Part shown: one piece after another, positions 17,163-56,419 of the stretch | How positions within the stretch are numbered: the first letter of the stretch is position 1 | Layout: each line of letters starts with the position of its first letter | Origin: Squalus acanthias | Lineage: Eukaryota | DNA: 64,000 nucleotides | NCBI GenBank assembly: GCA_030390025.1 | Contig: CM059431.1 | Span: forward strand, 129,520,001-129,584,000 | Direction of reading: 5' to 3' | Translations under genes and position numbers: made by a program | The notes under the pieces: generated by a model | What the model was told of the DNA's origin: nothing | Seen by the model: the letters and a program-made list of their open reading frames with translations, nothing else | Database searches by the model: none

Positions 17163-17464
17163 CCTCAACAACACTTCCCCATTCACCAGCAGTCCCACGC
17201 TCCCTACCTTTCCTCTATCACTGACCATCACATTGTGCTCTTTCCAACAACACAAATAAAAACCACCAGAAAATGCACATTCCAATACAAATTTATAAAT
17301 TCAATCATGATATAATGCATATAAAAATGAACTAATCACCCTTGTGCATTCCCTTAGTGCCTGTCTTCCGTGTGCATTTGCCTCTCCTAGTGCTTCTACA
17401 AGGTGCCTCCCCAGTGGCTCTAGCATCGGTGGTGGAAGGCTGCTGTGGTTGAATAGCTGCCAGT

Positions 17465-18450: not shown

Positions 18451-18669
18451 GAATCATTCCTTCCATCCCCAATACACCAATGGTTCCACACTCCTTATCA
18501 TCACCATCCTTACTACCACCATCGGATTGCTTTCCTTCAGTCCAACTTTATGGGTCTTGCCCTCATTTCACTACAAATATAAACACCAAATCCAGAACAA
18601 AATAAAATTGTCAAACAACTCAATTTCATTTGAATTTCATCCGTGTCTAATAGTTTATAGAAATTCTAA

Positions 18670-19638: not shown

Positions 19639-19933
19639 CGGAGTGCAGATCAGAACAGAGTGTTAAACTGCGAGTTTGGTGAGTGAGGGTGTGAGGGGAG
19701 GGAGGTGTTCCTTTCTTTTTCCATCTTTGTCAGCTTCCAGGAGAGCAGGAGCTAAAAAGCTGCATAAGAGGGGACAGAGAACCAGCGGTGAGTGTTTCGA
19801 CAGTATTTCTACATTCCAGTCAGTAAAGTAAAAGTAAGGTCTCTAGTTTAGAGTAAGTAGAGTTTAAAGGGAAGTAAGGTCCCTAGTGTATTTAATATTC
19901 TTTAACTTAAAAGGAGTAAATTAAGGGTAGGAC

Positions 19934-20880: not shown

Positions 20881-23815
20881 ACTAACTTGGCAGGGGGATG
20901 GGATAAGGAGTAGAGCTATAGTAGGGGCTGATGCACAGCCAAATATAGAGGAAAAAACAAGTCAGCCTGGAAGGCAGAGCAAATATGTAACGGCACAAAG
21001 GAGTATGGCAAGGCTGAATGGCATTTATTTTAATGCAAGGAGTCTTACGAGTAAGGCAGATGAATTGAAGGTGTTGATGCACACATGGGAGTATGATATT
21101 GTTGCTATCACAGAGACATGGTTGAGGGAGGGGCAGGACTGGCAGCTCAATATTCCGGGGTACAGAATCTTCAGGCGGGACAGAGGTGGGTGTAAAAGAG
21201 GAGGGGGTGTCGCAATATTAATCGAGTCAATTACTGCTGCAAGGAGGGATGATATCTTAGCAGGTTCCTCTAATGAGGCCATATGGGTAGAACTTAAAAA
21301 CAAAAAGGGGGCAAGCACTTTGCTGGGAGTGTACTATAGGCCCCCAAACAGTCAGGGAGAGAGAGAGGCACAGATATGTAAGCAAATCTCAGAGAAGTGT
21401 AGAAATAATAGGGTAATAATAGTAGGGGATTTCAACTTCCCCAATATTAACTGGGATAGTCAGAGTGTGAAAGGCTTAGAGGGTGCGGAATTCTTAAAGT
21501 GCATCCAGGAGAGCTTTTTGAGTCAGCATGTAGAAAGTCCGACAAGAGAGGGGGCGGTACTGGACCTAATTCTGGAGAATGTAGCCGGGCAAGTGGTAGA
21601 AGTGTCAGTAGCAGAGCATTTTGGTGACAGTGACCATAATTCGGTGAGATTTAAGGTAGTCATGGAAAAGGACAAAGATGGACCGGAAATAAAGGTTCTA
21701 AATTGGGGGAAGGCCGATTTTAATATGATAAGGCAGGATCTGGCCAAAGTGGACTGGGGTCAGCTACTTGTAGGAAAATCCACATCAGAGCAGTGGGAGT
21801 CTTTCAGAAAGGAAATAGAGAGAGTCCAACGGCAACATGTTCCCGTAAAGGTCAAGGGTCGGACCAATAAGTCCAGGGAACCCTGGATGTCAAGGGATAT
21901 GCGAGAATGGATTAGGAAAAAAAGGGAGGCTTTTGGCAGATACAAAGGACTAAAAACAGTGGAAGCCCGAGAGGAGTATAGAAAGTGCAGGGGGGTACTT
22001 AAAAAATAAATTAGGAGAGCGAAGAGGGGGCATGAAAAAACACTGGCGGGCAAAATAAAGGAAAATCCCAAGGTGTTTTATAAGTATATTAAGGGCAAGA
22101 GGATAACCAGGGAAAGAGTAGGGCCCATTAGGGACCAAAGTGGCAATCTGTGTGTAGAGCCAGAAGATGTAGGTGGGGTTTTAAATGAATATTTTGCATC
22201 TGTGTTCACTATGGAGAAGGACGATGTAGGCATAGAAATCAAGCAGGGGGATTGTGATATACTTGAACAAATTAGTATTGAGAGGGAGGAGGTACTAGTG
22301 GTTTTAGCAGGCTTAAAAGTGGATAAATCCCCAGGCCCAGACGAGATGTATCCCAGGCTGCTGTGTGAGGCAAGGGAGGAGATTGCAGGGGCTCTGACAC
22401 AAATTTTCAGAACCTCTCTGGCCACAGGGGAGGTGCCAGAGGACTGGAGAACAGCTAACATAGTACCATTATTCAAGAAGGGTAGTAGGGATAAACCAGG
22501 GAATTACAGGCCAGTGAGCCTAACATCAGTGGTAGGGAAATTATTGGAAAAAATTCTGAGGGAGAGAATTAGTCTCCACTTGGAGAGGCAAGGATTAATC
22601 AAGGATAGTCAGCATGGCTTTGTCAGGGGGAGATCATGTCTGACCAATTTGACTGAATTTTTTGAGGGGGTGACTAGGTGTTTGGATGAGGGTAGTGCAG
22701 TTGATGTGGTCTACATGGACTTCAGTAAGGCTTTTGACAAAGTCCCATATGGGAGACTGGTCAAGAAGGTAAGAGCCCATGGGATCCAGGGCAACTTGGA
22801 ACATTGGATCCAGAATTGGCTTAGTGGCAGGAGGCAGAGGGTGATGGTCGAAGGTTGTTTTTGTGACTGGAAGCCTGTGTTCAGTGGTGTACCGCAGGGA
22901 TCGGTGCTGGGTCCTTTGCTGTTTGTAGTGTACATTAATGATTTAGATATGAATGTAGGAGGTATGATCAGTAAGTTTGCAGATGACATGAAAATTGGTG
23001 GGGTGGTAAATAGCGAGGAGGGAAGCCTCAGGCTACAGGACGATATAGATGGGCTGGTCAGATGGGCGGAACAGTGGCAAATGGAATTTAACCCTGAAAA
23101 GTGTGAGGTGATGCATTTTGGGAGGACTAACAAGGCAAGGGAATACACAATGAATGGTAGGACCTTAGGAAGGACAGAGGATCAGAGGGACCTTGGTGTG
23201 CATGTACATAGATCCCTGAAGGCAGCAGGACAGGTAGATAAGGTGGTTAAAAAGGCATATGGGATACTTGGGTTCATTAGCCGAGGCATAGAATATAAGA
23301 GCAGGGAGGTTATGATGGAGCTGTACAAAACGCTACTTAGGCCACAGCTGGAATACTGTGTGCAGTTCTGGTCGCCACACTATAGGAAGGATATGATTGC
23401 ATTGGAGAGGGTGCAGAGGAGATTCACCAGGATGTTACCTGGGCTGCAGCGCTTCAGCTATGAAGAGAGACTGGACAGGCTGGGGTTGTTTTCCTTAGAA
23501 CAGAGAAGGCTGAGAGGGGACCTGATTGAGGTGTGCAAAATTATGAGGGGCATAGATAGGGTAGATAGAAAGGAACTTTTCCCCTTAGTAGAGGGGTCAA
23601 TAACCAGGGGGCATAGTTTCAAGGTAAGGGGCAGGAGGTTTAGAGGGGATTTGAGGAAAAACTTTTTCACCCAGAGGGTGGTTGGAATCTGGAACTCACT
23701 GCCTGAAAGGGTGGTAGAGGCAGGAACCCTCACAACATTCAAGAAGCATTTAGATGAGCACTTGAAACGCCATAGCATACAAGGCTACGGACCAAGTGCT
23801 GGAAAATGGGATTAG
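20840..23815 (+). pseudogene. CR1 ORF2 (AP endonuclease and reverse transcriptase) with an in-frame stop at 22007-22009
   Basis: YFNARS, ITETW, GDFNFP, SDH; RT motifs QHGF, DFSKAFD, GVPQGSVLGP, FADD. ORFs 20840-22009 and 22073-23815 share a frame. Confidence 0.93.
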
Positions 23816-23895
23816 AATAGACAGGGCTTGATGGCCGGTGCGGACACGATGGGCCGAAGGGCCTCTTTCTGTGCTGTAAAGCTCTATGACTCTAT

Positions 23896-24801: not shown

Positions 24802-25983
24802 TATGACTCTAAATGGCCCCACATTTTCAGCACATGAAATGAAAGAGAGGGACAAATGTTAGCTTTTAGTGTGAAGGGAGAGCAGAGGAAGAAGTGCCTG
24901 TTGGAAGCAACTGCAGTTTGTCATGCCGAGTGTGTAGGGTGAGATAGAAGTAAGAAGGGAAAAAGAGGATAAAGGGGTGAAGAAGCCCTGCGTGACCTCT
25001 CCTCCATCAATGCCAGTTGCCATGGCCTGCAAGTGATGGCCAACATGTTCTCTTCGAGGGGGGAGAGGGTGTGCAGGTGGACTCGGTCTCCTCCGGTGAC
25101 AGTATCCTGGAACAGGTTGTCAAAGACCTTCTGCTGCAAGAAAGAAGGGAGTGTGTTAATGACATCCTTGTGAATTGTTCAGAGAATGTGCCTGTTATGG
25201 TAGAATAGTTGGTATGCAGTCTAAGAATATGTAGATGTTTTTACATTATTCTAATGCAGAACAAAGACAGAACAGCTAAAGTAGATAGAATTGGTTTAAA
25301 CTGTGTGCGCACAAATTCTATCTTTTGATCACAATGACGCTGATAACATTTGAGAAGATGGATTTCAGGGCCGGAGACATTGTACTCTGTAAGGATAGGC
25401 ATAAATAGATTATTAAATAAATAAGTTGGCATTAATGATATAATATGGAGATAAAGGGTTGTTAGGTTAAATCACAGGGGCCTAGAAATTCAGGGGTTTA
25501 GCGCAACCCGGTACTGCCAGAATCGGGCAAAAAAATGGTGGCCAGCACTCTTCCACCAGCTGGCGGCGGGACCCACGACAGCCACCATTTTCAAATGGCC
25601 AGCAGCACTGCTGATATGAGCAATCGCGAAAATCATGGAAATGATGCAGGTCACAAGGTCAGTGAGTGTGCAAAGCTGACTTGATGCCTGAGCTGCGAGT
25701 TTGGAGTTCACTGTTCAACTTACCGGCATGCCTCAAGTGCGACGAGCTGAGCAAGCATTCACAAGCAGGAAGGAGGCTCCAGCAGTGGTATTTAAAGCGA
25801 TCATCAGCAATTACTAGCACCTGACATGTTTCTGCAGTTTGACTGGCTCTGTGCAACTTTCTGCAACCCTAGCAGCTTTATAAACTTCTTTCAAGGTTCT
25901 AAGGTAGCAGGAAGTGTTTTTGCAAGTGGAGAACGCCTTCATTCTTATTTAAAGGCTTCTGCTTACAACACTGGCTCACAGTC

Positions 25984-27368
25984 ATGGAGGATGTACTGGC
26001 AGTCCTCCTCGCACTCGAGTATCTTCGGGAGAGGGAGCAGAGGCAGCGAAGAAGAGGAGAAGATACACGTAGAGGGAGGAGGAGAAGGAGGAGAGACAGG
26101 AGGGCTCCCAACAGAAGGCCTTACCCACCTCGGGTCTTCCGAGAGCACTTTTCTTATATCCACTTAAGCGAGGGAGCCCCGCTTCACCAAGGAGGTGGTC
26201 ACAGAACTCTGACACCTCCTACAACCAGACCTGCAGCATCAGAGCAGGTAAAAACACGGCTCTCTCAGTGGCAGTCAAGGTCACCGTGGCCCTCAATTTC
26301 TTCACCAGCGGATCCTTCCAGTCTGCAGCAGGAGACATAGCTAACATCTCACAGTTCGCCGTCCATTGCTGCATCCAGGAGGTTACTGAGGCTAACTACA
26401 CCAGGAGAAGGGATTACGTTGTCTTCTCTCTGAGCAGAGAGAAGCAGGACTACATAGGATATACAGCACAGAAACAGGTCATTCGGCCCAACCAGTCTAC
26501 GCTGGCGTTTATGCTCCACTCGAGCCTCCTCCCATCTTTCCTCATCTAAATCTATCAGCGTAACCCTCTGTTCCCTTCTTCCTCATATGTTTGTCCAGTC
26601 TCCCCTTAAATGCATCTATACTATTCGCTTCAATCACTCCCTGTGGTAGCGAGTTCCACATTCTCACCACTCTTTGGGTAAAGATGTTTCACGAGCGTGC
26701 ATGTGGCTTTGCCAAGGTAGCAAGCTTCCCCATTGTACAGGGCATCATCGACTGCACCCACGTGGCTTTGTGGGCGCTGTATAACAATCCTGATATCTTC
26801 CATAACTGCAAAGGCTACCACTCTCTTAATGTACGGTTGGTGTGCAACCACGCCCAGCACTTCCTGATGGTCAGTGCCCGCTATCCTGGCAGCAGCCATG
26901 ATGTCTTCATCCTGTGTCAGTTCGGTGTGCCAGCAATCTTCCAGCCACCACAGCAAACTCGAGAGTGATTGCTCAAAGACAAGGGTTATCCGCTCTCCAC
27001 CTGGATCATGATTCCCCTCCACAACCCCAACACTTGTGCCCAGCACTCATAACGAGAGCCATGTTTCCACCAGGAACATCATTAGGTAGACCATCAGGCT
27101 ACTGAAGCAATGGTTCCGCTACCTTGACCGCTCAGGAGGAGCCCTCCAGTACACGTGAGTGTCCCATTTCGTGGTGGTCTGCTGCTTGCTTCACAACTTG
27201 GCCATCATGAGGGCACAACTCTTGGCAGCAAAGATTGCGGGACCACCTCAGGAGGAGGATGAGGGAGAGGAGGAGGAGGAAGAGGAAGAGGACAAGGAGG
27301 GAGGGAGGAGGCAGGCAGCCAATCCCCCTTCTGGACTAGCTGTCCATGAACACCTCATCAGACTCTGA
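25984..27368 (+). pseudogene. Harbinger transposase, frameshifted and interrupted by a CR1 tail
   Basis: RRPYPPRVFRE, FFTSGSFQ, FPIVQGIIDCTHV, ARYPGSSHD, DKGY, CCLLHNLA, acidic C-terminus. Confidence 0.9.
26450..26688 (-). mobile_element. Short CR1 3' tail inside the Harbinger transposase
   Basis: Reverse complement reads FTQRVVRMWNSLPQGVIEA followed by the CR1 3' hairpin. Confidence 0.8.
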
Positions 27369-27559
27369 TTCCAATGAATGAAACCCCAGATCTCCGTTGC
27401 TCACCACATCCCCATCATACCATCCTTCTGGCATGGAATGTCACAGCATCCTCCTGGACACAAAGATGAAATGAGAGCCACCACAAAAGATTCTAATCAA
27501 AATTAATAAATTTAGCAAAAATCAATTCACATATATTTACAGTAACAATATGAACTAAT

Positions 27560-29523
27560 CATATTTGTGCAACGCCATAGTGCCTGTCGTTTGGGAGCCC
27601 TTTCCTGTCCTAGTGCTCTAACGAAGTGCTCCCCCAGTGGCTGCAGCATGGCTGGTGGAAGGCTGCTGAATTTCCATGGAGTAGACTTCAGATGGCCTTG
27701 CATGATGACCTCAAGCAGCTCTGGTCCTTGAAGGCCCGGCTGCAGACTGCACCACCTCAGCATGGGCAGCAGCAGTCTGGGCTGGCTGGCTGACAAGCAG
27801 CGGCAAGGGTAATGGCAGAGTGGCAGTGGTGGGAACAGGAATACTGTCATCTTGAGAGAGCACAGCAGGGTCCTGCTCCACTGACCCACTGCTACTCCCC
27901 CAGGATGGGTCCTCAGCATTCCTAGCAATCTGTTGGAGCACAAATTGCTGGGCTGCTGCAAAACCCTGCAAGCCCCAGTCGACAGTGCTAAACACAGCGG
28001 CGATGGCAGCAGTCAGAGCTTGGGCAGCATCAAGCGGTCTGTGCTTCCACTGCAGCACTAAAACAGTGGGTCGCTTCCGCCTGTGCTGCAATGGCAGCCG
28101 TGACATCGCCCATCACACGCACCAACACGTATGGGTCAACACAGTCTCTTCGGGAGCTTTCCATCATTTCGAGGCTGGAAATCCTGGGCTCCAAGCTTTG
28201 CGCAGTGCCCTGTCCAATGCTGGAGTGGGACTCCTCCATGCTCCTTGACATTGCCAAGAGGCTCTCTGGCAGGCTTGCCATTGCACCTAGCAATTCGGTG
28301 TGCATGCCCATCACCCTTCTTCTGAAGGCCGCCCCATCGAGGTCCTCATCTGAGTCGTGTGCAGCAGAACTTGCGCAGATCCCCGTGGCCTTGCTGCAAC
28401 CCACTCATGCCTGGTATCGCACCCTGTGCAGGTCCTGCTACTATACTAGCTTCTAAAATATATGCAGTGCCAGTTTCTGAGCTGGTGTCTGCAACTGACA
28501 GATGCAGTGACGCTGTGTCTCCTTCTTCTTTTTCTTCTTTTATCCCCTCACTCTCATGCATCGCTTCAGGGACACGCTGCTCAGGTGCTTGTTGCTGACT
28601 TTCTGAAAGCAGAAAGGCACAAGAGTCGGGTTATGGTGAGGGGAGGGGGAGGGAAGCAAGATATGCATGCATACAGCATCAGCAGCTTGAAAGTGAGAAG
28701 AGATTGTGGGATGGGGGGTGGGGGTGGGGGGGAAGTGAGATGTGAGAAGGATTAGGAATGAGCATAACGTTGTTGTCCCCAAGGGGTTCAACCTCGCCAG
28801 TTGCCACGGCCTCTACGATCTGCCGCCCAATTATGTTCAGCACTCTCTCCTCCAGCTGGCTGAGGTCGTGGATATCAGCCTGCCCCCCATCCCCTGCCTG
28901 TCTGCCATTGCTCCCTCTGGTTATATGCGGCTTGGCCTGCAAGAGAAAGAGAAGTGTGTGAGTGAGTGTGGTGCAATGTGTTTGGGTGATGTGCCTGCCA
29001 TAGTTGAATAGCTTTCAGTGTGTGCAAGCTGTGTGATGTGGGTGTGAGTGTTGCAGTAGTGGTAAGGTTGTGAGAGTGAAGTAAAGCTCTGATTGTAAGG
29101 TGTGAATGGTGATAGGTACAGATTATCGTTGGTGAGTGCTGGGGGATGTAGTGCATTGAGTAGTGTGAGAGGCTTGTGGTGCAGATGGTAGGATATGGCA
29201 TTTGCTGAAACCTTGACCTGCAGTGTGAGGTCATTAAACTTCTTGTGGCACTGGATGGCTGATCTTGGCACCACAGTGCTGGCCGACACATGGGCGGATA
29301 TCTCCTGCCACAGCCTTCGCGAGGTGTCTGGCGAGGGCTTCCTTCCAGTGTGTGGGAAGAGGACAACCCGCCTCCTTTTCACGACCACGAACAGTGCCTC
29401 AAGAGCCGTGTCAAAAATCTCCTGGCTCTCTCCCTTTGAGGATGCTTGGCAGTACCTTCTTCTTCTTTGTCTTCTTGCAGCTGTAGGTCTGAGTGGCTTG
29501 ACAATGAGGTGTTTTAGCATCAA
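27560..29523 (-). pseudogene. Harbinger Myb/SANT-like DNA-binding gene, about three exons (~29523-29212, ~28937-28770, ~28603-27560)
   Basis: FDTALEAL...LWQEISAHV...RSAIQCHKKFNDL; pyrimidine-rich acceptors TTTCTCTTGCAG and TTCTGCTTTCAG on the minus strand. Confidence 0.75.
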
Positions 29524-29784
29524 TGCACCTCCCTTTTAAGTACTGAATAAAGCCTGTGCCACATATGACTAGGAATTAAACTGGACCCAAAATTGGTCCA
29601 CCTGTTGCGTATTAAGCCAATGAGCAGCAGTTTTAGCTGACTATAATCATGTTAATGAGGAATGAGCACAAATTTTGCGTGCTACAGAGACCATTTTGAG
29701 GTGGTGCAGCTTAACATCGTTGGGCCTTAATACTGCCTGTTTCGTGGCCATATACAATTTCTAGGCCAGGCTTTTTAAAAACAG

Positions 29785-30690: not shown

Positions 30691-32907
30691 GTGTTTAACG
30701 ACACCCGTTACCGGCATAATATGGCGGAACAGCGGCAGCCGCTCTTCCACCAGCTGGTGGCGGGTTCTGTGGCGTCCGCTATTTTGCGAGAGCCAGCAGG
30801 GCTGCCAGTAAAAGCGTTGGCCCATGAAATGTAAATGGGGAGAGGGTGACGTAAGTTGGCGTGCGTGCAACACCGACATAACGTCACCTCAGCGGACTTG
30901 GACCTTAGTGCTGAGTTCAGCACTGTGCCCTAAGCTCGTCATGAAATCCCAGTGTGCAGCAGACTGACAGAGGCGCTGTCAGCACTTCTTGAATGGACAC
31001 ACATCTTTCAGGTAAGTTTGCATTTAAGCTTTTGGAATTTTTTTTAATTTTATTGAAGTAGTCACTTGCTGCAATACATGTTAAAAGTTTTTAAGTGTGC
31101 AGGGAGTGCTGCTGGACACATGGATGGTAAAGGAAGGCCTCTGAGAAGACAGAAAATGTTGCAAATGCTCAGCAGGTCAGACAACATCCGTGGAGAGAGA
31201 AACAGGGTTCATGTCTCAGGTCGAGATGCTGCCTGACCTGCTGAGTATTTCCAGCATTTTGCGCTTTTATTTCAGATTTACAGCATCCGCTCGCAGAGTG
31301 AAGAGGAAGATGCAAAAGAGTAAGATGCAGAAGAGGAAGACGCACAAGAGGAAGAAGCAGAAGAGGAGGAAACAGAAGGAAGGATGCAACCCAGACAGCC
31401 CCTTTCTGGCCGGGATATCCGGGATGGAATCATCCACCTGCAGTACCAGTCACCACAACCCTAATTCCCCTTTCCACATTTGTCCCACATCTTACCTTCC
31501 CTCTGTTACTGACCATCACAGCGTCCTCTTGGACACAATGCTAAAATAAAAGCCACCACAAAGCAAACTTTCCAATCCAACTTTATACATCTATTCGTCC
31601 AATATGACATCAAGAAATCAACTTATCACCCTTATGCGTTCTGTTAGTGACTGTCTTGTGTGTGCCTTTGCCTATCCTACTGATGTCACGCAGTGCTACC
31701 CCAGTGGCTGCAGCATGGCTGGTGGAAGGCTGCTGACTTTCAGTGGAGGACACTGCAAATGGCCTTGCTGGTCAACATTGAGGAGCTGGTGGCTGGGAGT
31801 GTGAAATCAAGTAACGGTGTTTCTTCTTCTTCTCCTTCTTCTTCATTCTCCTCTCCCTCTCCTTGGCCAACCACTGGCTGGGCAGGCTGCATTTCTTGGG
31901 TGTGTGAAATGAGGAAGGCACAAGGGTGGAGTTGTGGTGAGGGGAGGGCGGGAAAGCATGAGGTGCATGCCAGAAGGAGGATAACGTATGAGGATACCAA
32001 CATCTTGTATCCTTTCAGCCCCACCGCTGGCCAAGGGCTCAGCCATGCACCTGCCAAGAATGGCCTGCACCATCTCCTCCAAGGGGGTGAGGTGAGGCTA
32101 GGAATGGGAGATATGCCTCGTGATTGGTGCAGATTGTTGGAGGTGAGTGACTGGGGGTTCATGCATTGAGCAGTGTGAGAGGCTAGTGGTGCAGTTGGTA
32201 GGAGATGGCTTTTGAAGATGCATTCACTGACCTTGACCAGTGTTCTAAGGTCATGAAGCTTCTTTGAGCACTGGAGCCAGGAGGTGGAGGCAACACTGCT
32301 GGCAGTGATGACCTCGGTGATGTACTCCCACATCGTTCTTTCTGGAGGGCCTCCTGGCCCCTGTGGGTAGAGGACGTGTCTTGCAGTGTTAACCACTGCA
32401 CAAAGCTGTAGTGTTGCATGCGAGACCCTGGGTGCCCCTTCCCTGGCTTGCTGAAGCAGTTTTCCCATGTTTTGAGGTTAGCAAGGGAATTCAGCTTTAA
32501 CAGCTGAATAATCACATTTGGCATCTTCTTTTTAACGTTAATTTTTTGTATGAAAAGGCAGTAAGGGCTTAAAACTGTATTGTTTCACTTAATTTTAATT
32601 TGTATTAATTCAGAGTACATGGCCCCTTTAATTCCCAGGCCTTTTCATTGCCCACAATTCCTTGCAAGGTCCACAGCCTCACTTCCAGAGGCTGTGCGAA
32701 GCTCGAACACCACACCTGGGACAAGAACTTCGGGTCAGATGCCTCCACCAATGCCACCAGGACAGCATTGCACGAAAGGTTAGCGCTGTGCCATCAATTT
32801 CCAGCACCCCCAGATGAATTTTGCCCTGTTAGCGTTGCGGCCATTTTCAGCAGCCATTAACTCTAGTTGTCACCGGCAACTATACTGGCGAACACAAATT
32901 TCTCCCC
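30691..32907. mobile_element. Internally deleted Harbinger derivative with a Penelope-derived hairpin and Myb/SANT remnants
   Basis: Left subterminal sequence resembles 25490-25600; WLQCSKKLHDL on the minus strand; right terminus AAATTTCTCCCCC. Confidence 0.65.
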
Positions 32908-33029
32908 CATAGTTTCTCCAATCTTTTCTCTTTACTCAGAGCCCTGATGCTGGATGAGCCTCGAGGCCCTCCCCTGCATTGCCTCCAATGCTTGAATGCC
33001 TTTTTTGTTTCTTGGAGACCAGAGCTGGC

Positions 33030-33796
33030 CAAGAGGACACTGTGATGGTCAGTTACAGATGGAAGGTAAGGTGTGGGACTAATGATGAAAGGGGATTTGG
33101 GGCTGTGGTCACAGGGACCGCAGGCGGATGATTCCATCTCGGATATCCCGGCCACAAAGGGGCTGTCTGGGATGCATCCTTCCATATGCTTCCTCCTCTT
33201 CTGCTTCCTCCTCTTCTGCTCCCTCCTCTTCGGCTCCCTCCTCTTCTGCTTCCTCCTCTTCCCTCTGCAAGCGGATACTGTAAATGTGAAATGACAGCAT
33301 CTTGACCTGAGACATGAACTCTGTTTTTCTCTCTACGGATGTTACTTGGCCTGCTGAGTACTTGCAGCAGTTTCTGTCTTCTCAAAGGCCTTCATTTACT
33401 TTCTGAGCCATTGCAAGCATCCAGCAGCAGTCCCTCCACACTTAGAAAACATTTCACATCTATTGCAGCAAGCCACTACTTCAATAAAATCAAAAAAAAA
33501 ACAGTCCAAAAGCTTAAATACAAACTTACCTGTCAGCCTGCTTGCACGCCAGGTTAACGAATTCAGCGCTAGGGTCGAAGTTCACGTTTGAGACGTTAAG
33601 TCAGCGTTGCACATCCGATTGACATCGCAATGCCGCCATTTTGTTTAGGGTGGCCAGTTACCAGCAGTGCAAAGGTAGGGACCAAAATGGTGGCAGCCAC
33701 CGGACCCACAACCAGCTGGCAAAAGAGCAGTGGGCGGCATTTTAGCGCCATTTAATGGCACTACGGAGTAGCGCTAAAGTCACGAATTTCTAGCCC
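33030..33796 (-). mobile_element. Inverted partial copy of the 30.7-31.5 kb Harbinger derivative
   Basis: Terminus AATTTCTAGCCC; reverse complement aligns by eye to ~30700-31530 (both translate C[IN]PDSPF[VL]AGIS.MESS...PYLPSVTDHHSVLL). Confidence 0.75.
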
Positions 33797-35969: not shown

Positions 35970-37705
35970 ATAGTCTGTGTACTGCTTGCCGATGTGATCG
36001 GTTATTGATCCATCAGTTTGCACTGGTAGATTTAAGACTGCTTTGTACTTGTGAACGAGTTTACTTACATTTTCTGTGCCGTAATCAAATTTGGCTGAAA
36101 CCAGTGCTTCGATGTCGAATGCGGACCACTCTTGCAGCTCATTCTCTGGAAATCGAGCATCTAAATGTTCACATCGTCTTGTAATGAAACAGAGAATACC
36201 TGTATTGGCGAGAGATGCCATTTCTTGTTTCACTTTCTCACTCCAGTGAGTTTTTTCTCTGAGGTACTGGGCGCGCATTTTTTCAATTTTGGCCTTTGTC
36301 ACTTCAATGACACTGAGACTACTTCTTTGAAAAATGTGGCACAGTTCAGACAATTTCCACGAATCGTCATCTAGCACAGTCAGTGCAATACGATGCTGCA
36401 GATCTGTTAGCTTTTGAGACAGTACTTCGCTATAGGATCATTATCATTGGCTTCCACCTTGCAGTAGTGTACTTGTACATCGTAATTTCTCAGAAGGGCA
36501 TTTACAGCAAATTTACATGATTATCAGCGCATTTCATTCAAAGGCCTGAATGATAATGCATCAACTTCCAAAAGGCTGGCTAACTCCTCAAACTTAGCTT
36601 TCTTAACAGATGATCTGCTAAATATTGCACATACAGTTCGTACTAATGTCTCCACTTCTTTCATCATCGGCACATCTTTCCAAGCATCATCAATTCCCAG
36701 ATCTTCTCTGTGGGCAACACAATGTTGTTCTAGTAAGTGCAGCATGCACTCTCTAAGCTGGGCAGCTACACTGTTATGCCTATCTAGCATGACAGTTGCA
36801 CCATCTGAAGTCAGCATCACCATTCTCTGTAGATCCAGATTGTGATCCATGTAGAATTGCTTGATAGCATCAGTAATGCTCCAAGCATCACATGAAATAA
36901 AGTCAATCTTGTGCTGCATTAACATGACCACGGTATAATATTACATGCACTTAACTGGATAATGGCAAGAAATACAGCCTTGTGGCTGGCATTTTTCCGT
37001 TCTCGAAACTTGATGTACAGAATTAACATTTTATGCACAACATTGTCGGTGCTTTCGTCAACTATCAGCGTACGAACTCAGGAATTGCGTACAGCTGCCA
37101 TTACCTCGTTTTGCATTACAGCGTACAAATTCAAAGGCATAGTTCTTGCTTCTCCAGCTGGTAGGAACATTAACATATTTCGTTACGTATTCGTTAATTT
37201 TCTGCACCGACAACATGGATGTGTATATGTTCATAGCAAGGAACACATTGTCAATCAGAATTTTTATTTCATCCGGATGTGCTTGCTGACATTCCCCCAT
37301 TTCAATGCGCTTCTGTCAGTTTTCAGCAGACTCTGTAAATAAACGTTGAATTCCAATGCCATGTTTCTGGTCATGTAAACTTTTAACTGCCTCAATATGA
37401 ACTTTTTGAACTAAGTGGTGTTTCAGATAGTCCAGTTTCCATTCAGTCCATCTTTTACCACTTGTAAATTCTCCATTAACTTTGGCATCAGACAACCCCG
37501 GCACTCACTGAATACTGAAAAATGTCTCCCAGTTTCAAAAGGCCCCTACCAGAGACATCGGTTGTTTCAGTTTCCACAACTTCCAAAAACCAATCTTCTT
37601 TAAATGCTGAAGAGTATTTTTTCTGAGACACTGTTAGTGCCTGGGCTCCTGCCTTTCACTTGGACATGATACTTACCTAGGCTAAAACGCTAACACAGTG
37701 GAACT

Positions 37706-37875
37706 CTCAGCCTCACCCTTTTCAGTGCTCTGCTCTGGGCCTCGGCCTTTTCAATGCTCCACTCTGGGCCTCGGCCTTTTCAATGCTCCACTCTGGGCCT
37801 CAGCCTTTTCAGTGCTCCATTCTGGGCCTCGGCCTTTTTAATGCTCCACTCTGGGCCTTACTCTTTTCAATGCTT
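37706..37875. repeat. ~29-bp tandem repeat, about 5 copies
   Basis: CTCGGCCTTTTCAATGCTCCACTCTGGGC units. Confidence 0.85.
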
Positions 37876-37879
37876 CAAT

Positions 37880-38520
37880 GTCATCCTCGATCTCCGTTCC
37901 CGCTCCGATGTCATTCTTGATCTCCTTCCCACTCTGATGTCGTCCTCAATCTCCCTGCCCCCTCCAATGCCATCCTCGATCTCCCTGTCCGCTCCAATGC
38001 CATCCTCGATCTCCCTGTCCGCTCCAATGCCATCCTCGATCTCCCTGCCCCCTCCAATGCCATCCTCGATCTCCCTGTCTGCTCCAATGCCATCCTCGAT
38101 CTCCCTGTCCGCTCCAATGCCATCCACGATCTCCCTGTCCGCTCCAATGCCATCCTCGATCTCCCTGTCCGCTCCAATGCCATCCTCGATCTCCCTGTCC
38201 GCTCCAATGCCATCCTCGATCTCCCTGTCCGCTCCAATGCCATCCTCGATCTCCCTGTCCGCTCCAATGCCATCCTCGATCTCCCTGCCCCCTCCAATGC
38301 CATCCTCGATCTCCCTGCCCCCTCCAATGCCATCCTCGATCTCCCTGCCCCCTCCAATGCCATCCTCGATCTCCGTTCCCCCTCCAATGCCATCCTCGAT
38401 CTCCCTGCCCCCTCCAATGCCATCCTCGATCTCCCTGCCCACTCTGATGCCATCCTCGATCTCCCTGTCCGCTCCAATGTCATTTGTCGTCCTCGATCTC
38501 TTTCCCGCTCCGATGTCGTA
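37880..38520. repeat. 30-bp minisatellite, about 17 near-perfect copies plus degenerate flanks
   Basis: CCATCCTCGATCTCCCTG(TCCG/CCCC)CTCCAATG units. Confidence 0.95.
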
Positions 38521-39439: not shown

Positions 39440-40050
39440 AAAGACAGAAATAACAGAAAATACTGGAAACACTCAGCAGGCCAGGCAGCATCCGTGGAGA
39501 GAGAAACAGAGTTAACGTTTCAGGTCTCTGACCCTTCGTCAGAATGGAAAAAGTTAGAGATATAATAGGTTTTAAGCAGGTGCAGAGGCAGGGAAAGGGG
39601 GAGGGGAAGAAAGACAAAAGGAATGGTCTGTGATAGGGTGGAAGGCAGGCGTGGTTAAATGTTGCAAATGGGAATGGCAGAATCATCAACAGCTGCCATG
39701 TGAAAAAATAGGGGCAGGGGTTATAGTCTGAAATTGTTGAACTCAATGTTGAGTCCAGAAGACTGTAAAGTGCCTAATCAAAAGATGAGGTGCTGTTCCT
39801 CGAGCTTACGTTGAGCTTCATTGGAACAGTGTAAGAGGCCGAGGACAGAGAGGTCAGAGTGGGAGTGGAGCGGAGAATCAAAGTGACAAGCGACCGGAAG
39901 CTCGGGGTCACCCTTACGGACTGAACGGAGGTGTTCCACAAAGCGTTCACCCAATCTGCGTTAGGTCTCCCCATTGTAGAGGAGGCCTGCAGAGTGTTTC
40001 CAGCATTTTCTGTTATTTCAGATTTCCAGCGTCTGCAGTATTTTGCTATT
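39440..40050 (-). mobile_element. Penelope-like element fragment: GIY-YIG end, pLTR and an inverted pLTR piece
   Basis: Minus strand reads YNGET.RRLGERFVEH...PVACHF...QRKLEEQHLIF.LGTLQSSGLNIEF; an inverted copy of the pLTR end lies at ~39990-40050. Confidence 0.85.
39505..39548 (-). ncRNA. Minimal type I hammerhead ribozyme motif (Penelope-associated)
   Basis: CATT-CTGACGA-AGGGTC-AGA-GACCT-GAAA-CG-TT-AACT on the minus strand. Confidence 0.7.
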
Positions 40051-43138: not shown

Positions 43139-44097
43139 ATGGAGGGTAATGTAGCCAAGTTTGCAGATGATACAAAGATGGGTGGGAAAGCAAGTTGTGC
43201 AGAGGACTCAAAGAACCTGCAAAGGGATATAGACAGGCTAAGTGAGTGGGCAAACATTTGGCAGATGGAGTATAATGTGGGAAAGTGCGAGGTTATACAC
43301 TTTGGCAGGAAAAATAAAAAAGCAAATAATTATTTAAATGGAGAGAGATTACAAAATGTTACAGTTCAGAGGGACCTGGGGGTCCTTGTGCATGAAACAC
43401 AAAAAGTTAGCATGCAGGTACAGCAAGTAATCAAAAAGGCAAATGGAATGTTGGCCTTTATTTCAAAGGGGTTGGAGTATAAAAGCAGCGAAGTCCTGCT
43501 ACAACTGTACAGGGTATTGGTGAGACCACACCTCGAGTATTGCGTACAGTTTTGGTCTCCTTATTTAAGGAAGGATATACTTGCATTGGAGGCAGTTCAG
43601 AGACAATTCACTAGGTTAATTCCAGAGATGAGGGGGTTGACTTATGAGGAAAGGTTGAGCAGGCTGGGCCTATACTCATTGGAATTTAGAAGAATGAGAG
43701 GTGATCTTATCGAAACATATAAGATACTGAGGGGGCTCGACAAGGTAGATGCAGAGAGGATGTTTCCCCTCGTGGGAAATCTAGAACGTGAGGGCACAGT
43801 TTTAGAATAAAGGGTTGCCCTTTTAGAACGGAGATGAGGAGGAATTTCTTCTCTCAGAGGGTCGTAAATCTATGGAATTCTCTGCCCCAGAGAGCTGTGG
43901 AGGCTGGGTCATTAAATACATTTAAGGTGGAGATAGACAGATTTTTGCAAGATAAGGGAGTGAAGGGTTATGGGGAGCGGGCGGGGAAGTGGCTTTGAGC
44001 CCAAGATCAGCCATGATCTTATTGAATGGCGGAGCAGGCTCGAGGGGCCAAGTAGCCTATTCCTGCTCCTATTTCTTATGTTCTTATGTTCTTATGT
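43139..44097 (+). mobile_element. CR1 LINE 3' fragment
   Basis: KFADDTKMGG...RPHLEYCVQFWSP; tail (TTCTTATG)3. Confidence 0.93.
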
Positions 44098-48309: not shown

Positions 48310-48497
48310 TAAGAACATAAGAACATAAGAAACAGGAGCAGGAGTAGGCCATTCGGCCCTTCGAGCCTGCTCCGCTATTCAATAAGATCATGGCTGATCT
48401 TCTACCTCATCTCCACCTTCCCGCACTATCCCCATATCCCTTGGATCCCTTAGTATCCAAAAATCTATCGATTTCTGTCTTGAACATATTCAATTGC
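48310..48497 (-). mobile_element. CR1 3' tail fragment
   Basis: (AAGAACAT)n followed by the hairpin also seen at 44000-44097 and 49671-49770. Confidence 0.85.
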
Positions 48498-50268
48498 AAT
48501 GGTGAGGGGAAAATAACATTTTGGGACCAGTATATGAGTAATTTGAGACATGACATGTGGTAAATGTAACATGCTTGCTGACTTTGGACCTGTGGTTCCC
48601 AAAGCTCTCCATCAGTGGGGGTTTCCTTGTGTCATTTCTGGGTCTGTTGTAGACTAATTGATAGAGATTAATTGCTATGATTAGTCAACAACTCCAGTAG
48701 CATTTTATCATGCAACTACCAGAATGGTAGATGGCGAACTAGATGGACCTTGGTCTTTTTTCGTCTAGCAATTCCTACGTTCCGTATGAGGATTTGACCA
48801 GGGCTGTAGGCCGGCAGGTGGTGCAGGTTTTTCAGGCAGCCGGAGGCAGCTGGAGCGTGGGTCTGGGAGCAGGTTCAGAGGCCACATTTATTTGTGGCAA
48901 GAGAGCTGATTGAGTGTGAGGTAGAAGTACTGGCAGTGGAGGGATGCAGTGAGGACAGGAAGTGATAATATCAAGTGAAGAATAAGAACATGAAAGGTTT
49001 GATGCTGTGAGGCATAGCACCATCTACCTTAGAGACTGAAAGATAAGTATGCAGGAATGGAGTGGATTTTTGTGTAACTATTTCCATCAAGTGGGAGACA
49101 AATGGAGTGAGCCCACCACTCGCCTGATGGAAGTGGTCCGAGGCCAAACCAATGTTAATGGCCAGGCTACATTAGCATTGAATCAGTGAGCTGCTTGGTC
49201 ATTAGGAGCAGTTTACTGATCGGAGGGAGCCAAACATCTGGCCGCTCCACCTTGGAACTCAGCTGGTCCAGGTAAGTTAACAGCAAAGGAGGTGCTCCCG
49301 TGGGAGGGCCGCGGATGGGCGGGTATCACAGGGGCTGTTTGTTTCTGGGGCCAGGAGGAACATTAATGCTTCATCTTACCCCACAAAAATCATTTACAAA
49401 CCCATCTTTAAACATTTTCTAAGCGACCTGCTGGCGTTCCCTTTGAGGACCTCTGAGTAAGCTGCTCAATGGCAAGTGCCAATGGGCAGAGTAGGCGTAG
49501 CACACACTCCACTCACTGGTACTTCCAAATTTCATTGGAGTCCTGTTGGTGTCATAGGACCCCAATTTGCATGGGCTAAGGAGGCTCGCACCTGCTTCTT
49601 GCAGGCACCCAGGCCGTCCAGTTCAAGGTCCCAATCGAAACGCCAGAAATACAGATGTCTGCGGGATTAGAACATAAGAAATAGGAGCAGGAGTAGGCCA
49701 ATCGGCCCCTCGAGCCTGCTCCGCCATTCAATAAGATCATGGCTGATCTGATCCTAACCTCAAATCTAAAGAACACAAGAAGTAGGATCAGGACCCGGCC
49801 ACTCAGCCCCTGGGCCCGCTCCGCCACCCACAGGGCCCTGACCGATCCGAACTCAGCCTCATGTCCAATTTCCTGCCCGCTCACCGTAACCCCTAATTCC
49901 CTTTACCTCTAGGAAACTATCTATTTCTGTTTTAAATTTATTTAATGATGTAGCTTCCACAGCTTCCTGGGGCAGCAAATTCCACAGACCTACTACCCTC
50001 TGAGTGAAGAAGTTTCTCCTCATCTCAGTTTTGAAAGAGCAGCCCCTTATTCTAAGATTATGCCCCTTAGTTCTAGTTTCACCCATCCTTGGGAACATCC
50101 TTACCGCATCCACCCGATCAAGCCCCTTCACAATCTTATATGTTTCAATAAGATCGCCTCTCATTCTTCTGAACTCCAATGAGTAGAGTCCCAATCGACT
50201 CAACCTCTCCTCATATGTCCACCCCCTCATTCCTGGGATTAACCGACTGAACCTTCTTTGTACTGCCT

Positions 50269-51875
50269 TGTAGAATTCGCAAATTATCGCGATTTCGAAA
50301 TAACGAGATAGAGACATACAGTTTCGTAAAAACAGCTTTATTTCAGCAAAATGCTGTCAGGTTCAAAAACGGACACAAGAAGCCTGTAAAATGGCCACCG
50401 CGCCTCGTGGCAGAAGGTTCCAGATTTTTCAGTAGGCAGACAAGATGGCGTTTCAATAAACATTTCAGCAAGATCGGACAGTGCTCAGCATATTGATATA
50501 AGACAAGACGCGATCGTTTTGCATTTCTAACACCTGAGCAAGAAATATAAGTGTTGGAATCGGTTTTCCATACACAAACGGGGGCTATTGTACTGGGCAA
50601 TCAAGGGCCCATCCAAAGACATTGATACGCAAATTCCCCGCGGCTCTACGATGAGAGAGCCGTTCGCGGGTACTCACAACAAGAATTCGGAGGCCCCCAA
50701 AACACCTCCAGGGAGACTCCTAGCCGGTTCCACAATGGGAGAAATATTAACGGGTACTTAGACAGTTACAAGTATCACCGAAACCCATTAACGACAAGAA
50801 CCACCCCATACAAGAAGTTTGAGCGCCAAAACATGACAAAAGATGAACATTAAGTTTGGGCGGGAGATAATGAATTACAGTACTATAACTGTAGTGTCCA
50901 AGCGCCCATCGCTCTCTTATCCTTTTCATTTGCTTGGAATCGTCTCTTGGCTATTCTCCCGGACGACCGTTACTCTCTCTTGTTCCGCTGATCCCTTTTG
51001 GGGTCGACCTTGTGGCGTGCTGCGAAATCGGGTGCACCATCCCGAAGGTCGGTAAATGGTGTCTGGACCCGAAGGCCCGAGGAGATGAGATGAGATGAGA
51101 AGAAGAAGAATCCACGTGCCGCCGCGGTCAGTAAACCCCGACCGCGCCCGAAAATATATAGACCATTTTTGAACTCTATAGGTTACTGCACGAACTGACA
51201 CAGGAAGACTTTTCTTCGAATTCTATCGAACTGGTGTCGATCCAGAAAGACTTTTCTTTGAGTTCTACAGCCGGGCCCGAGCACTGTCGAGTTCTTCATG
51301 ACAACGGGGAGCCCAGCCTGCTTGCAACAGCAGAGCGAGTAAACAAGTGGGGTACAGAGACCCCTGATCAACACGTGAATAGTCAGGTGCTGTGGCGAAA
51401 ACATCCGACCATCGTTTTAGAATTCTCTGAGTTATCACGAGTGGTGAGCATGGTTCTAGATCCTACAGATCTAGATTAGGACAGGTATTAATAGGGGAGG
51501 GTTTTGTTTTAAGGATAATTATAATGTGTGTCCCCTTTTACGATGTGTCGTGCGCTCCTCGTTTCCCTAAACCTAGTTGCATAAATGTATGTAAGCTTGT
51601 ACTGTCATTAATCTGTGCTTATGACATGTATTTCGTAATCTTGAACAATATGCAATAAAGATTTTCCATTTCGTACTATTCAACCGGGTCTACCTGAGTT
51701 TTCTCTGCATTACTGCTCTCGCACCTAAGTCCAGTGTCAGAACCGTAAGGGCGAGTGGGTCGAACCACTCACAGGTGTCTAGTGCTACCAGGCTGGCTGG
51801 AGACCAGAACAGGCAACAAGGCCTAACCCCGCACTAGCACCCAGGCTAAGCACAGAGCCACCCGAACCCCTTTCA
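50269..51875 (+). mobile_element. Solo-LTR-like insertion of 1607 bp, probably ERV or Gypsy derived
   Basis: TGTAGAA...CCCTTTCA ends, perfect TSD GCCT, AATAAA at 51654-59; removing it restores the CR1 RT frame ALEAVQRR. Confidence 0.85.
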
Positions 51876-54402
51876 GCCTCGAGAGCAAGTATGTCTTTTC
51901 TTAAGTATGGACACCAAAACTGTATGCAGTATTCCAGGTGCGGTCTCACCAATACCTTATATAACTGCAGCAATACCTCCCTGTTTTTATAATCTATCCC
52001 CCTAGCAATAAAAGCCAACATTCCGTTGGCCTTCTTGATCACCTGCTGCACCTGCATACTATCTTTTTGATTTTCTTGCACTAGGACCCCCAGATCCCTT
52101 TGTACTGCAGTACTTTCCAGTTTCTCGCCATTAAGATAATAACTTGCTCTCTGATTTTTCCTGCCAAAGTGCATAACCTCACATTTTCCAATATTGTATT
52201 GCATCTGCCAAATCTCCGCCCACTCACCCAGCCTGTCTATATCCCCTTGTAGGTTTTTTATGTCCTCCTCACTTTCTACTTTCCCTCCCATCTTTGTATC
52301 ATCTGCAAACTTTGATATGTTACACTCGGTCCCCTCCTCCAAATCGTTAATATAGATTGTAAAGAGTTGGGGACCCAGCACCGACCCCTGCGGAACACCA
52401 CTGGCTATTGGTTGCCAGTCCGAGAATGAACCATTTATCCCAACTCTCTGCTTCCTGTTAGATAACCAATCCTCCACCCATGCCAGAATATTACCCCCAA
52501 TCCAGTGATTTTTTATCTTGAGCAATAATCTTTTATTTGGCACCTTGTCGAATGCCTTCTGGAAGTCTAAATACACTACGTCCACTGGTTCCCCTTTATC
52601 CACCCTGTACGTATGTCCTCAAAGAACTCAAGCAAATTTGTCAGACATGACTTCCCCTTCATAAAGCCATGCTGACTTTGTCCTATTAAATTATGTTTAT
52701 CTAAATGTTCCGTTACTGTCTCCTTAATAATAGACTCCAAAGTTTTATCCACCACAGATGTTAGGCTAACTGGTCTATAATTTCCAGCCTTCTGCCTACT
52801 ACCCTTTTTAAATAAGGGTGTTACATTAGCAGTTTTCCAATCTGCCGGGACCTTTGCTGAGTCCAGGAAATTTTGGAAAATTATTACCAAAGCATCCACA
52901 ATCCCTACTGCCACTTCCCTCAAGACCCTAGGATGTAAGCCATCAGGTCCAGGAGATTTATCCGCCTTGAGTCCCATTATTTTACTCGGTACCAATTCCT
53001 TAGTGATTTTAATCGTATTTAGCTCCTCCCCCCCTAGAGCCCCCTGTTTGTCCAGTGTTGGAATATTCTTAGTGTCCTCTACCGTAAAGACTGAAACAAA
53101 ATATTTGTTCAGCATTTTTGCCATCTCCATGTTTCTCACCATTAATTTCCCGGTCTCATCCTGTAAGGGACCTACGTTTGCCTTAGCCACCCTTTTTCTT
53201 TTTATATAACTATAGAAACTCTTGCTATCTATTTTATATTTTTTGCTAATTTATTTTCATAATCTATCTTCCCTTTCGTAATCAATCCTTTAGTTACCTT
53301 TTGCTGTCTTTTGAAGACTTCCCAATCTTCTATCCTCCCATTAAGTTTGGCTACCTTATATGTCCTTGTTTTTAGTCAGATACTATCCTTAATTTCTTTA
53401 CTTAGCCACGGATGGCTGTCATTTCTTTTACACCCTTTTTTCCTCAGTATTTCTTTTGAAAGTTGTAAAATAACTCCTTAAATGAACACCACTGCTCATG
53501 TACTGTCTTACCCTTTAATCTATTTTCCCAGTCCACTTTAATCAATTCCGCTCTCATACCATCATAGTCTCCTTTATTCAAGCTCAGTATGCTTGTTTGA
53601 GAACCAACCTTCTCACCCTCTAATTGGATATGGAATTCAACCATGTTATGGTCACTCATTCCAAGGGGATCCTTAACTAGGACATTATTAATTAATCCTG
53701 ACTCATTACACAGGACCAGGTCCAAGGTTGCTTGCCCCCTTGTAGGATCAGTTAATACTGCTCAAGAAATCCATCCCTAATACATTCAATAAACTCTTCC
53801 TCAAGGCTGCCCTGCCCAATTTGATTTGTCCAATTAATATGATAGTTAAAATCCCCCATAATTATAGCTGTTCGCTTATTACATGCCCCAACTATTTCCT
53901 GATTAATACTTCTTCCAGCAGAGTTGCAACTATTAGGAGGCCTATATACTACTCCCACTAGTGTTTTTTTCCCCTTATTATTCCTTATCTCCACCCAAAC
54001 TGTTTCATTATCCTGATCCTTTGACCCAATATCATTTCTCTGTATTACAGTGATTCCTTCCTTTATTAACATAGCCACCCCACCTCCCCTTCCTTCCTGC
54101 CTGTCCTTCCTGATTGTTAAATACCCTGGCATATTTAGTTCCCAGTCGTTGTCACCCTGCAGCCATGTTTCTGTAATGGCCACAAGATCATACCCATACG
54201 TAGTTATTTGTGCCGTTAACTCGTCCATTTTGTTACGAATGCTACGTGCATTCAGATAAAGAACTTTCAAATATGTTTTCTGACACTTTGTTCCTGTTTT
54301 TTCCTTTTTTAACACTTTACCTTTTACTCCATACCTTCTGTCCCTTCCTGACACGCTTTCCTCTGTCTCCCTACTCAGGTGCCCAACCCCCTGCCACTTC
54401 AA
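51876..54402 (-). pseudogene. CR1 ORF2 (APE-RT) with frameshifts and deletion; continues at 50268-49859
   Basis: YLNARS, ITETW, GDFN, SDHN, KSPGPDG, QHGF, DFQKAFD, FADD spread over several frames. Confidence 0.9.
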
Positions 54403-55349
54403 TTTAAACCCTCCCCAACAGCACTAGCAAACACTCCCCCTAGGACAGCGGTCCCGGCCCTGCCCAGGTGCAGACCGTCCGGTTTGTACTGGTCCCACCT
54501 CCCCCAGAACTGGTTCCAATGTCCCAGGAATTTGAATCCCTCCCCCTTGCACCATTCCTCTAGCCACGTATTCATTTGAAATATCCTCCTATTTCTACTC
54601 TGACTAGCACGTGGCACTGGTAGCAATCCTGAGATTACTACCTTTGAGGTCCTATTTTTTAATTTACCTCCTAACTCCCTATATTCTGCTTTTAGGACCT
54701 CATCCCCTTTTTTACCTATATCGTTGGTGCCTATGTGCACCACGACAGCTGGCTGTTCGCCCTCCCCCTCCAAAATGTTCTGTAGCCGCTCCGAGACGTC
54801 CTTGACCCTTGCACCAGGGAGGCAACACACCATCCTGGAGTCTCGGTTGCGGCCGCAGAAACGCCTATCTATTCCCCTTACAATTGAGTCCCCTATCACT
54901 ATAGCTCTTCCACTCTTTTTCCTCCCAGCCTGTGCAGCAGAGCCATCCATGGTGCCAGGAAGTTGGCTGCTGCTGCCTTCCCCTGATAAGTCATCCTCCC
55001 CAACAGTATTCAAAGTGGTATATCTGTTTGAGAGGGGAATGTCCACAGGGGACCCCTGCACTACCTGCCTGCACCTCTTGCTCTGCCTGGTGGTCACCCA
55101 TTTACTTCCTGCCTGTACACCCTTTGCCTGCGGTGTGACCAACTCGCTAAACGTGCTATTCACGAGGTTCTCAGCATCGCAAATGCTCCAATACGCATCC
55201 AATCGCAGCTCCAGCGCCGTAATGCGGTCTGCCAGTAGCTGTAGCTGGATACACTTCCCGCACACATGGTTGTCAAGGACACCGGAAGGGTCCCTGATTT
55301 CCCACATAGCACAGGAGGAGCATACCACGGGGCCGAGCTCTCCTGCCAT
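54399..55349 (-). CDS. CR1 ORF1 protein, intact 316 aa (zinc finger/leucine zipper and SGNH esterase)
   Basis: Uninterrupted ATG-to-stop ORF with CSSC...CGKC, GDSIVRG, HIGTND, DGLHL. Confidence 0.88.
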   Translation of the reverse strand: MAGELGPVVCSSCAMWEIRDPSGVLDNHVCGKCIQLQLLADRITALELRLDAYWSICDAENLVNSTFSELVTPQAKGVQAGSKWVTTRQSKRCRQVVQGSPVDIPLSNRYTTLNTVGEDDLSGEGSSSQLPGTMDGSAAQAGRKKSGRAIVIGDSIVRGIDRRFCGRNRDSRMVCCLPGARVKDVSERLQNILEGEGEQPAVVVHIGTNDIGKKGDEVLKAEYRELGGKLKNRTSKVVISGLLPVPRASQSRNRRIFQMNTWLEEWCKGEGFKFLGHWNQFWGRWDQYKPDGLHLGRAGTAVLGGVFASAVGEGLN

Positions 55350-56419
55350 GACTTACCCTTTAATGAATTCAAATTAAATTAAAACAAATCAATCCCACCA
55401 ATTGCACTACAGTTAAATGATATACTTAAGGGCCCTGGTTTACCAACAGTCCCCGCTACACCACAGAGAGCTTAGAAACTATAAGCCACAGAGTTTAAGT
55501 TTAAAAAGAGAGAAATACTCACCAACCAATCACTTACCTGCTTTCTGGTGACGTCACACTTCGATTACTTTTTACTTCTCTCCCTCCGAGCTCAGAGATT
55601 GGGAAGCCTACCTGGTCTCTGCCGCCTCTTAAACCTAGCCGCCGCCGCCTGGTTCCCCGCAGGTCCGCCGCCGCTCTGAGGCCTACCTGGTCTCTGCCGC
55701 CTCTTAAACCTCGCCGCCGCCGCCGCCTGGTTCCCCGCCGGTCCGCCGCCGCTCCATTAGGATGGTAAGTTCTGCACTATTATTTTAAACTTGCTACTAC
55801 TGCTTTGCCGCCCAGTGGAGGGGATGAAATTAGAGTAGCTGTAGTGATTTGCTGTAAGCACAGTGAACAATTTATATAAAACTTTTTTGGATGTCGATGG
55901 ACAGGTGACATGCTTTTGAGGAGCACAGATGATGATAACTCCATAACTGGAAAAAGCAAATATTATATCCTATGTCCCACGGACTAAAGATTTACAAAAT
56001 CAATAATGATGAAATTGAGTGTTTGCCAAAATACAGTGCAACCACGCTTCATCTTTCAGATGAGACAGTGAATCAATAAAAATGTTTACCTTCAAAGCTA
56101 AAGTAAAGCTATTTAATTATGTGGTGTTCTCGGAAACTGGAACTATTAGTTCCAAACAGTATTGTAAAGTATCATTGCAGTTTGAAAGTCTTATTAAACA
56201 AATAGTAACATCATAGCTGCTCTGAAAAAGAAGCTTCAGGGTTTCATTAAAATTTCTATAAAAGTTTACACAAAAATGTAAAAAATGCCATTACATGTTA
56301 AAGCTGTTGCAGTCATTTTATAATGAAGTTCTTGGAGAAATTCAGTACAGATACTTTATCAGGAGCTATATGCTATAATTAACATTGGTAGCAATAGAAT
56401 AGTGAATACTGTCATTCTA

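Follow-up and report, generated by a model that had tools for sequence, protein, structure and literature searches.

A solo long terminal repeat of a many-copy family, possibly of foamy-like or loki-like origin, within a CR1 LINE of Squalus acanthias

Foamy-like endogenous retroviruses (ERVs) of fish produce 4-nt duplications (PMC5210030), and the long terminal repeats (LTRs) of two of them, AciFLERV and AliFLERV, are 1,498 and 1,634 nt long and accompanied by 4-bp duplications (PMC5512871). Foamy LTRs typically measure 950-1,700 nt (PMC6955096) and the LTR of Loki-Bsp, which has a long R region, about 1.8 kb (PMC7947760). Foamy-like ERVs are recognised by a spuma-clade reverse transcriptase (RT), a Gag without Cys-His box and a tRNA-Lys/Asn/Thr PBS, whereas lokiretroviruses are recognised by a loki-clade RT and an F-like Env; of the foamy-like GGGTG motif at the PPT:LTR border, a solo LTR keeps only the TG half. 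Foamy-like ERVs of sharks have already been published. Duplications of 4 bp are also made by MLV-type gammaretroviruses (PMC3790719) and by the animal Helenus TRIMs (PMC10886601).

Here we analyze an insert of 1,607 bp at positions 50269-51875 (+ strand) of a 64,000-nt stretch of the Squalus acanthias genome, which was analysed as a whole and is called the window. The insert lies within the foamy LTR size range and presents a putative long R and a 4-nt duplication, a duplication length that is not specific. The preliminary description of this locus had considered 1.6 kb to be long for a simple-retrovirus LTR and had proposed the insert as the best candidate for novelty in the window. Neither opinion is supported: LTRs of this size are found in fish foamy-like ERVs and lokiretroviruses, so that the length is unremarkable, and shark foamy-like ERVs are in print.

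Host element and borders of the insert

The host of the insert is a CR1-type LINE located on the minus strand at 49862-55352, which has an ORF1 with a GDSL esterase (54402-55352) and an ORF2 with endonuclease and RT, and which carries several frameshifts. The insertion is in the 3' part of ORF2. The CR1 RT is in register across the insert, so that its removal restores the host frame as had been claimed, but only locally, since ORF2 undergoes three or more further frame changes, located near 53755, in the interval from 53456 to 53229, and near 52615.

The borders of the insert are independent of its terminal motifs, because they are fixed by a CR1 paralogue, by the ORF2 alignment and by contig joints. 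The paralogue, at 43142-43992 of the same window, aligns to both flanks with an overlap of 4 nt; residues 220-466 of a paralogous ORF2 align to 52618-51878 and residues 468-600 to 50263-49865, both in frame -3; and contigs from three public sequencing runs (X11, X6 and X8) contain the joint 50264/51876, in which 4 letters fit either side. At these borders the insert starts with TGTAG, ends with TTTCA and is flanked by an exact GCCT duplication, whose left copy (50265-50268) corresponds to the 4-nt overlap with the empty paralogue and whose right copy (51876-51879) is also seen in contigs. Borders fixed in this way would show TG, CA and a repeat of 4 bp together by chance with a probability of about 1.5e-5. 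The joint 50264-51876 was also considered as a sign of insertion polymorphism; this was rejected, because CR1 paralogues yield the same joint and it is thus no proof of such polymorphism.

The insert contains 81 CpG sites. Its observed/expected ratio of 0.92 exceeds that of the window (0.40) and that of the host CR1 (0.41), and the highest value in 592 other segments of 1,607 nt is 0.74. Its longest stop-free frame, of 105 codons, equals the shuffle median (it is reached in 49% of 300 shuffles), and Pfam matches were found in 0 of its 11 frames. The TG...CA ends with their GCCT duplication, the many retained CpGs and the lack of a long ORF are thus confirmed, and the solo-LTR-like nature of the insert is supported by its ends, by its 4-bp duplication and by a many-copy family with the same borders. 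We conclude that the insert is very probably a real and well-delimited solo LTR. A coding U3, as the tail of an accessory gene, was tried and discarded: a frame as long as the one of 75 codons at the left end is seen in 11% of shuffles, no longer homologue turned up, and the two protein matches obtained are sums of weak matches to repeat proteins.

The TG...CA ends and the duplication would also fit a DNA transposon or MITE; Ginger, for example, combines a Gypsy-like integrase with 4-bp duplications. This origin is scarcely credible, being largely refuted by the absence of a terminal inverted repeat in the insert and opposed by promoter and poly(A) signals arranged as in an LTR. No internal direct repeat or duplication of note occurs in the insert, and no second copy of the LTR in the 64-kb window, where the best other match has an E value of 0.025. 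A Helenus TRIM, which consists of two short LTRs with a tRNA-derived promoter around PBS and PPT (PMC10886601), was rejected on the lack of an internal direct repeat and on an ARAGORN tRNA search of the LTR that gave nothing.

Several other repeats were observed in the window. A 75-bp GC-rich tandem duplication (55606-55749) lies upstream of ORF1 of the host CR1, and a short retroposon tail is present in three copies that are 92-94% alike (44003-44095, 48317-48400 and 49666-49749), one of them just beyond the 3' end of the host CR1. A second near-full-length CR1 (19900-23830, + strand), with a GDSL ORF1 and long open pieces of ORF2, is 78% alike to the host CR1 over about 1 kb, and an RVT_1 fragment at 10709-11119 (minus strand), unmatched by the host CR1, probably belongs to another LINE family. 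Adjacent tandem arrays of 29-bp (5.9 copies) and 30-bp units (20.4 copies, 92%) occupy 37703-38483; either strand can be read without a stop over 263-284 codons, and Pfam returned no match there. The regions 16300-18900, 25800-29535 and 31009-33532 hold remains of Harbinger-like transposons, with DDE_Tnp_4 (26564-26965) and Myb/SANT (28924-29535) matches, together with a block of 2.5 kb whose inverted arms are nested. Two MITE-like units were also found, at 1726-2817 (inverted arms of 84 nt, 99%) and 39447-40019 (36 nt, 94%).

Layout and orientation of the LTR

Read on the + strand, the LTR can be divided into a putative U3 of about 910 nt (50269-51180) with 54 CpG, whose boundary is set by a TATA-like box; a putative long R of about 495 nt (51181-51675), which is AT-rich in its 3' part (GC 0.36) and is placed by analogy with the LTRs of FLERVs; and a putative U5 of 200 nt (51676-51875), with GC 0.56. 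The TATA-like box (51155-51162) agrees with the consensus at 7 of 8 positions, as do five other sites in the LTR, and the 80 nt upstream of it have a GC content of 0.59 and 9 CpG. The AATAAA signal at 51654-51659, 216 nt from the right end and 499 nt from the TATA-like box, is the one that had been noticed at about 220 bp from that end; its flanks are T-rich, and TGTA occurs four times in the 150 nt upstream of it. As motifs, TATA and poly(A) signal stand in the order expected of U3-R-U5, with the former as a putative promoter. A canonical + strand TATA box is present at the same place in one contig of run X6 (a single contig, of depth 7.6).

Folding of the U5 region was no better than that of shuffled sequences (z of -0.57 and -0.05), and z went no further than -2.2 when 25 windows, each of 120 nt, were folded for both strands. 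A hairpin in U5 (51752-51773) has a loop that resembles a tRNA T-loop on the minus strand; it is not a tRNA, and ARAGORN returned nothing. The search in Rfam returned one chance match (E 0.31).

This layout is close to that of fish foamy-like LTRs. AciFLERV and AliFLERV LTRs start with TGT as the shark LTR does, the TTTCA end of AliFLERV is identical to the shark end, and the distance from TATA to AATAAA, counted on the printed sequences, is about 560 nt (PMC5512871). They also have an AT-rich stretch before AATAAA and a GC-rich tail; their U3 is shorter (475-645 nt) and their U5 longer (430-465 nt), and the likeness is one of layout, with no sequence similarity shown. Among the lokiretroviruses, the Loki-Dcl LTR starts with TGTAG like the shark LTR, whereas the loki LTR ends compared are CTACA, TTACA, CGACA or CAAC(A), unlike the TTTCA found here, and the loki TATA lies near 305 (PMC7947760); neither 'target site' nor 'shark' occurs in the main text of that paper. 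The catshark ERV-Spuma.0-Sca has LTRs of 866-869 nt, shorter than 1,607 nt (PMC10699275). It shares the host class of the shark LTR, as does the shark CmiERV, with no motif in common in the parts of the two sources compared (PMC10699275, PMC4422223). On this comparison we regard a foamy-like or loki-like (spuma-related) provirus in the CR1 LINE, reduced to a solo LTR, as the likeliest explanation, with moderate confidence.

A Gypsy origin was weighed on the same terminal features. Barthez-like Gypsy retrotransposons make 4-bp duplications and have long LTRs, so that TG...CA ends and a 4-bp duplication would also be found in a solo LTR of this kind. Gypsy LTRs usually carry a TGT...ACA inverted repeat, and the ends of the insert are asymmetric (TGTAG, and TGAAA on the other strand); this asymmetry and the match of its layout to FLERV and loki LTRs make such an origin quite unlikely.

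The orientation of the LTR depends on signals of unequal quality. The preliminary description had read it antisense to the CR1, and the TATA and AATAAA signals described above favour this + strand reading, which is probably correct; against it stand the five other sites with 7 of 8 positions, the TATA-like box itself, which is near-palindromic and reaches 7 of 8 positions on the minus strand too, and a second AATAAA, at 50337-50342 on the minus strand. The latter, which had been overlooked like a third AATAAA at 50455 (+ strand), faces outward at 68 nt from the left end and is followed by GT-rich sequence, with no upstream TGTA. Three AATAAA in total are not unusual in shuffled sequences (P 0.10).

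These minus-strand signals bear on a different retroviral origin, in which the solo LTR would come from a gamma-, epsilon- or SnRV-like ERV, perhaps with the minus strand as its sense strand and so parallel to the CR1; read in this direction it would start with TGAAAG, which is also the start of the MLV LTR, and have its AATAAA 68 nt before a terminal CTACA. The chance that AATAAA lies no more than 100 nt from a given end is about 2.5%, and MLV makes 4-bp duplications as well (PMC3790719). Moreover, this minus-strand reading resembles the end of scaffold 2 of the elephant-shark CmiERV, an SnRV-like ERV of lineage I, in which AATAAA stands about 70 nt before a terminal TCTAACA (PMC4422223). A short U5 with AATAAA near the end is, however, seen on the minus strand only, where the other signals are weaker: the AATAAA lacks upstream TGTA, the TATA lacks a GC-rich upstream region (GC 0.41, versus 0.59 on the + strand) and R would be about 800 nt long. 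The canonical + strand TATA box of the X6 contig and a length that fits foamy and loki LTRs better also oppose this origin, which we consider unlikely.

The presence of outward AATAAA signals within 300 nt of both ends, which occurs in 0.7% of 2,000 shuffles (a post hoc count), suggested in addition a composite of two LTR-like modules placed head to head with their poly(A) ends outward, or a small non-autonomous unit. The bin 50940-51006 has the lowest depth in 4 of 4 runs, a measure that cannot rank parts of the element, and it is bridged by other copies (X1 records 5 and 6, X11 record 12); a composite also finds no internal duplication or repeat of note, and a second AATAAA, given one real signal, has a chance of 2.5-7.5%. 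We hold a composite to be highly improbable.

It is also very doubtful that the LTR has transcription in both directions built into it, so that an antisense RNA of U3 alone would be made and ended within the LTR. In this scheme the near-palindromic TATA (51155-51160) would also fire leftward, the outward AATAAA at 50342 would terminate an antisense RNA of about 0.8 kb covering U3 alone, and this RNA would pair with the U3 of the genomic RNA to give double-stranded RNA. The scheme has a partial precedent, because BLV shows ADAR-type edits in U3 together with an antisense transcript (PMC8025556). An ADAR signature was sought in the shark LTR copy and set aside, since among its 16 private changes only 3 are of the ADAR type, a number too small for such a signature.

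Family, subfamilies and age

Words of the element are contained in 20 public sequencing runs from 9 studies, which represent seven coded organisms (A-G), with shares from 0.70 to 0.05. Contig alignment covered 4 of the 20 runs, two from organism A (X1 and X11), one from B (X6) and one from D (X8), and organisms C, E, F and G are represented by the word index alone. In all four aligned runs, from three coded organisms, 30 of 30 bins of the LTR are covered. In X1, 9,914 contigs align to the element plus 200-nt CR1 flanks, of which 2,014 are at least 99% alike, 2,867 are 95-99%, 3,649 are 90-95% and 1,384 are under 90%; another letter at a single site is found in up to 55 X1 contigs and 1-bp indels occur throughout. 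An exact start at 50269 is shown by 3 of the 32 pieces listed. There are four alternative U5 ends, as sister subfamilies depart from the reference after 51777, 51835, 51847 or 51856 in contigs of X1, X6 and X8. The LTR belongs to a family of many copies that is divided into subfamilies and is common to at least three organisms; the subfamilies have R-U5 in common and differ at the very end.

Among the pieces listed no contig spans the whole element and none shows a PBS, a PPT or the junctions of its own locus, and among the 24 loose ends listed, besides which 765 more exist, there are no paired copies around internal genes. Contig depth gives no copy number here and cannot rank parts of the element, and its use as a marker of copy number or orientation was dropped, the runs being in disagreement (depth is highest at the right end in X6 and X8 and in the left part in X1 and X11). 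Expression from X11 contigs was dropped as well, X11 being only guessed to be RNA.

The age of this copy was estimated from 36 in-element differences among the 40 listed of 220. At 16 of these 36 sites, 90% or more of X1 depth disagrees with the copy, and at 21 of 36, 80% or more does; decay of CpG accounts for 4 of the 16 private changes. The best word share, 0.70, corresponds to about 1.1% divergence, and the divergence of the copy from the family majority is about 1-1.5%. At the substitution rates assumed for sharks, 2.2e-10 (PMC4422223) and 0.5e-9 (PMC10699275), a divergence of 1.0-1.5% corresponds roughly to 20-68 Myr, an age which is only rough because X1 may not be the species of the window and because an unseen subfamily may be closer. 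The insertion, which had been described as young, is thus recent only in a relative sense, with about 1% divergence that amounts to tens of Myr at the published shark rates and a family present in at least three organisms. The high CpG content cannot serve to date the LTR, because the host CR1, little decayed itself, has a ratio of 0.41.

Origin and significance

Recombination of a provirus's two LTRs with each other is an established mechanism that leaves a solo LTR. In the preferred explanation, a foamy-like or loki-like ERV would have integrated as a provirus into the CR1 LINE; its integrase would have cut the target with a 4-bp stagger, duplicating GCCT; and LTR-LTR recombination would then have deleted the internal genes. 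The LTR left on the + strand would comprise a U3 of about 910 nt with a CpG-rich TATA promoter, an R of about 495 nt up to the AATAAA at 51654 and a U5 of about 200 nt.

The borders, the duplication, the non-coding nature of the insert and its membership of a many-copy family in three organisms are direct observations; the solo-LTR origin, the orientation, the clade and the U3, R and U5 limits are probable assignments. Within the window no internal retroviral region was found, and gag, integrase and env gave 0 matches among 94 frames. Motif searches in three ERV supplements did not connect the LTR by sequence with any published ERV: the CmiERV supplement (PMC4422223) has 0 matches to three short LTR motifs and the catshark and lamprey supplement (PMC10699275) has 0 to two, in the portions of these supplements searched, and the matches in the corresponding portion of the loki supplement (PMC7947760) fall only in coding sequence, in 4 passages. 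Pattern scans for a copy with internal flanks returned 0 and 12 loci in metagenomes, 3, 2, 0 and 0 in viral sequences, and 0 and 0 in prokaryote genomes; all 17 loci are chance matches, because the match spans only 18-27 nt around the seed. No description of the LTR family was found in the literature, in a search outside which most subscription papers lay.

The insert is an ordinary kind of genomic repeat. It marks a large shark ERV family, probably uncatalogued and common to several species, for which a relationship with the known foamy-like viruses of fish is most likely. As it stands the family brings no new biology and is useful for repeat annotation and dating; it would have greater weight only if the antisense poly(A) signal at the left end were functional. 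The retroviruses of cartilaginous fish are thinly described, and this LTR, once joined to its internal genes, would add a foamy or loki lineage to them.
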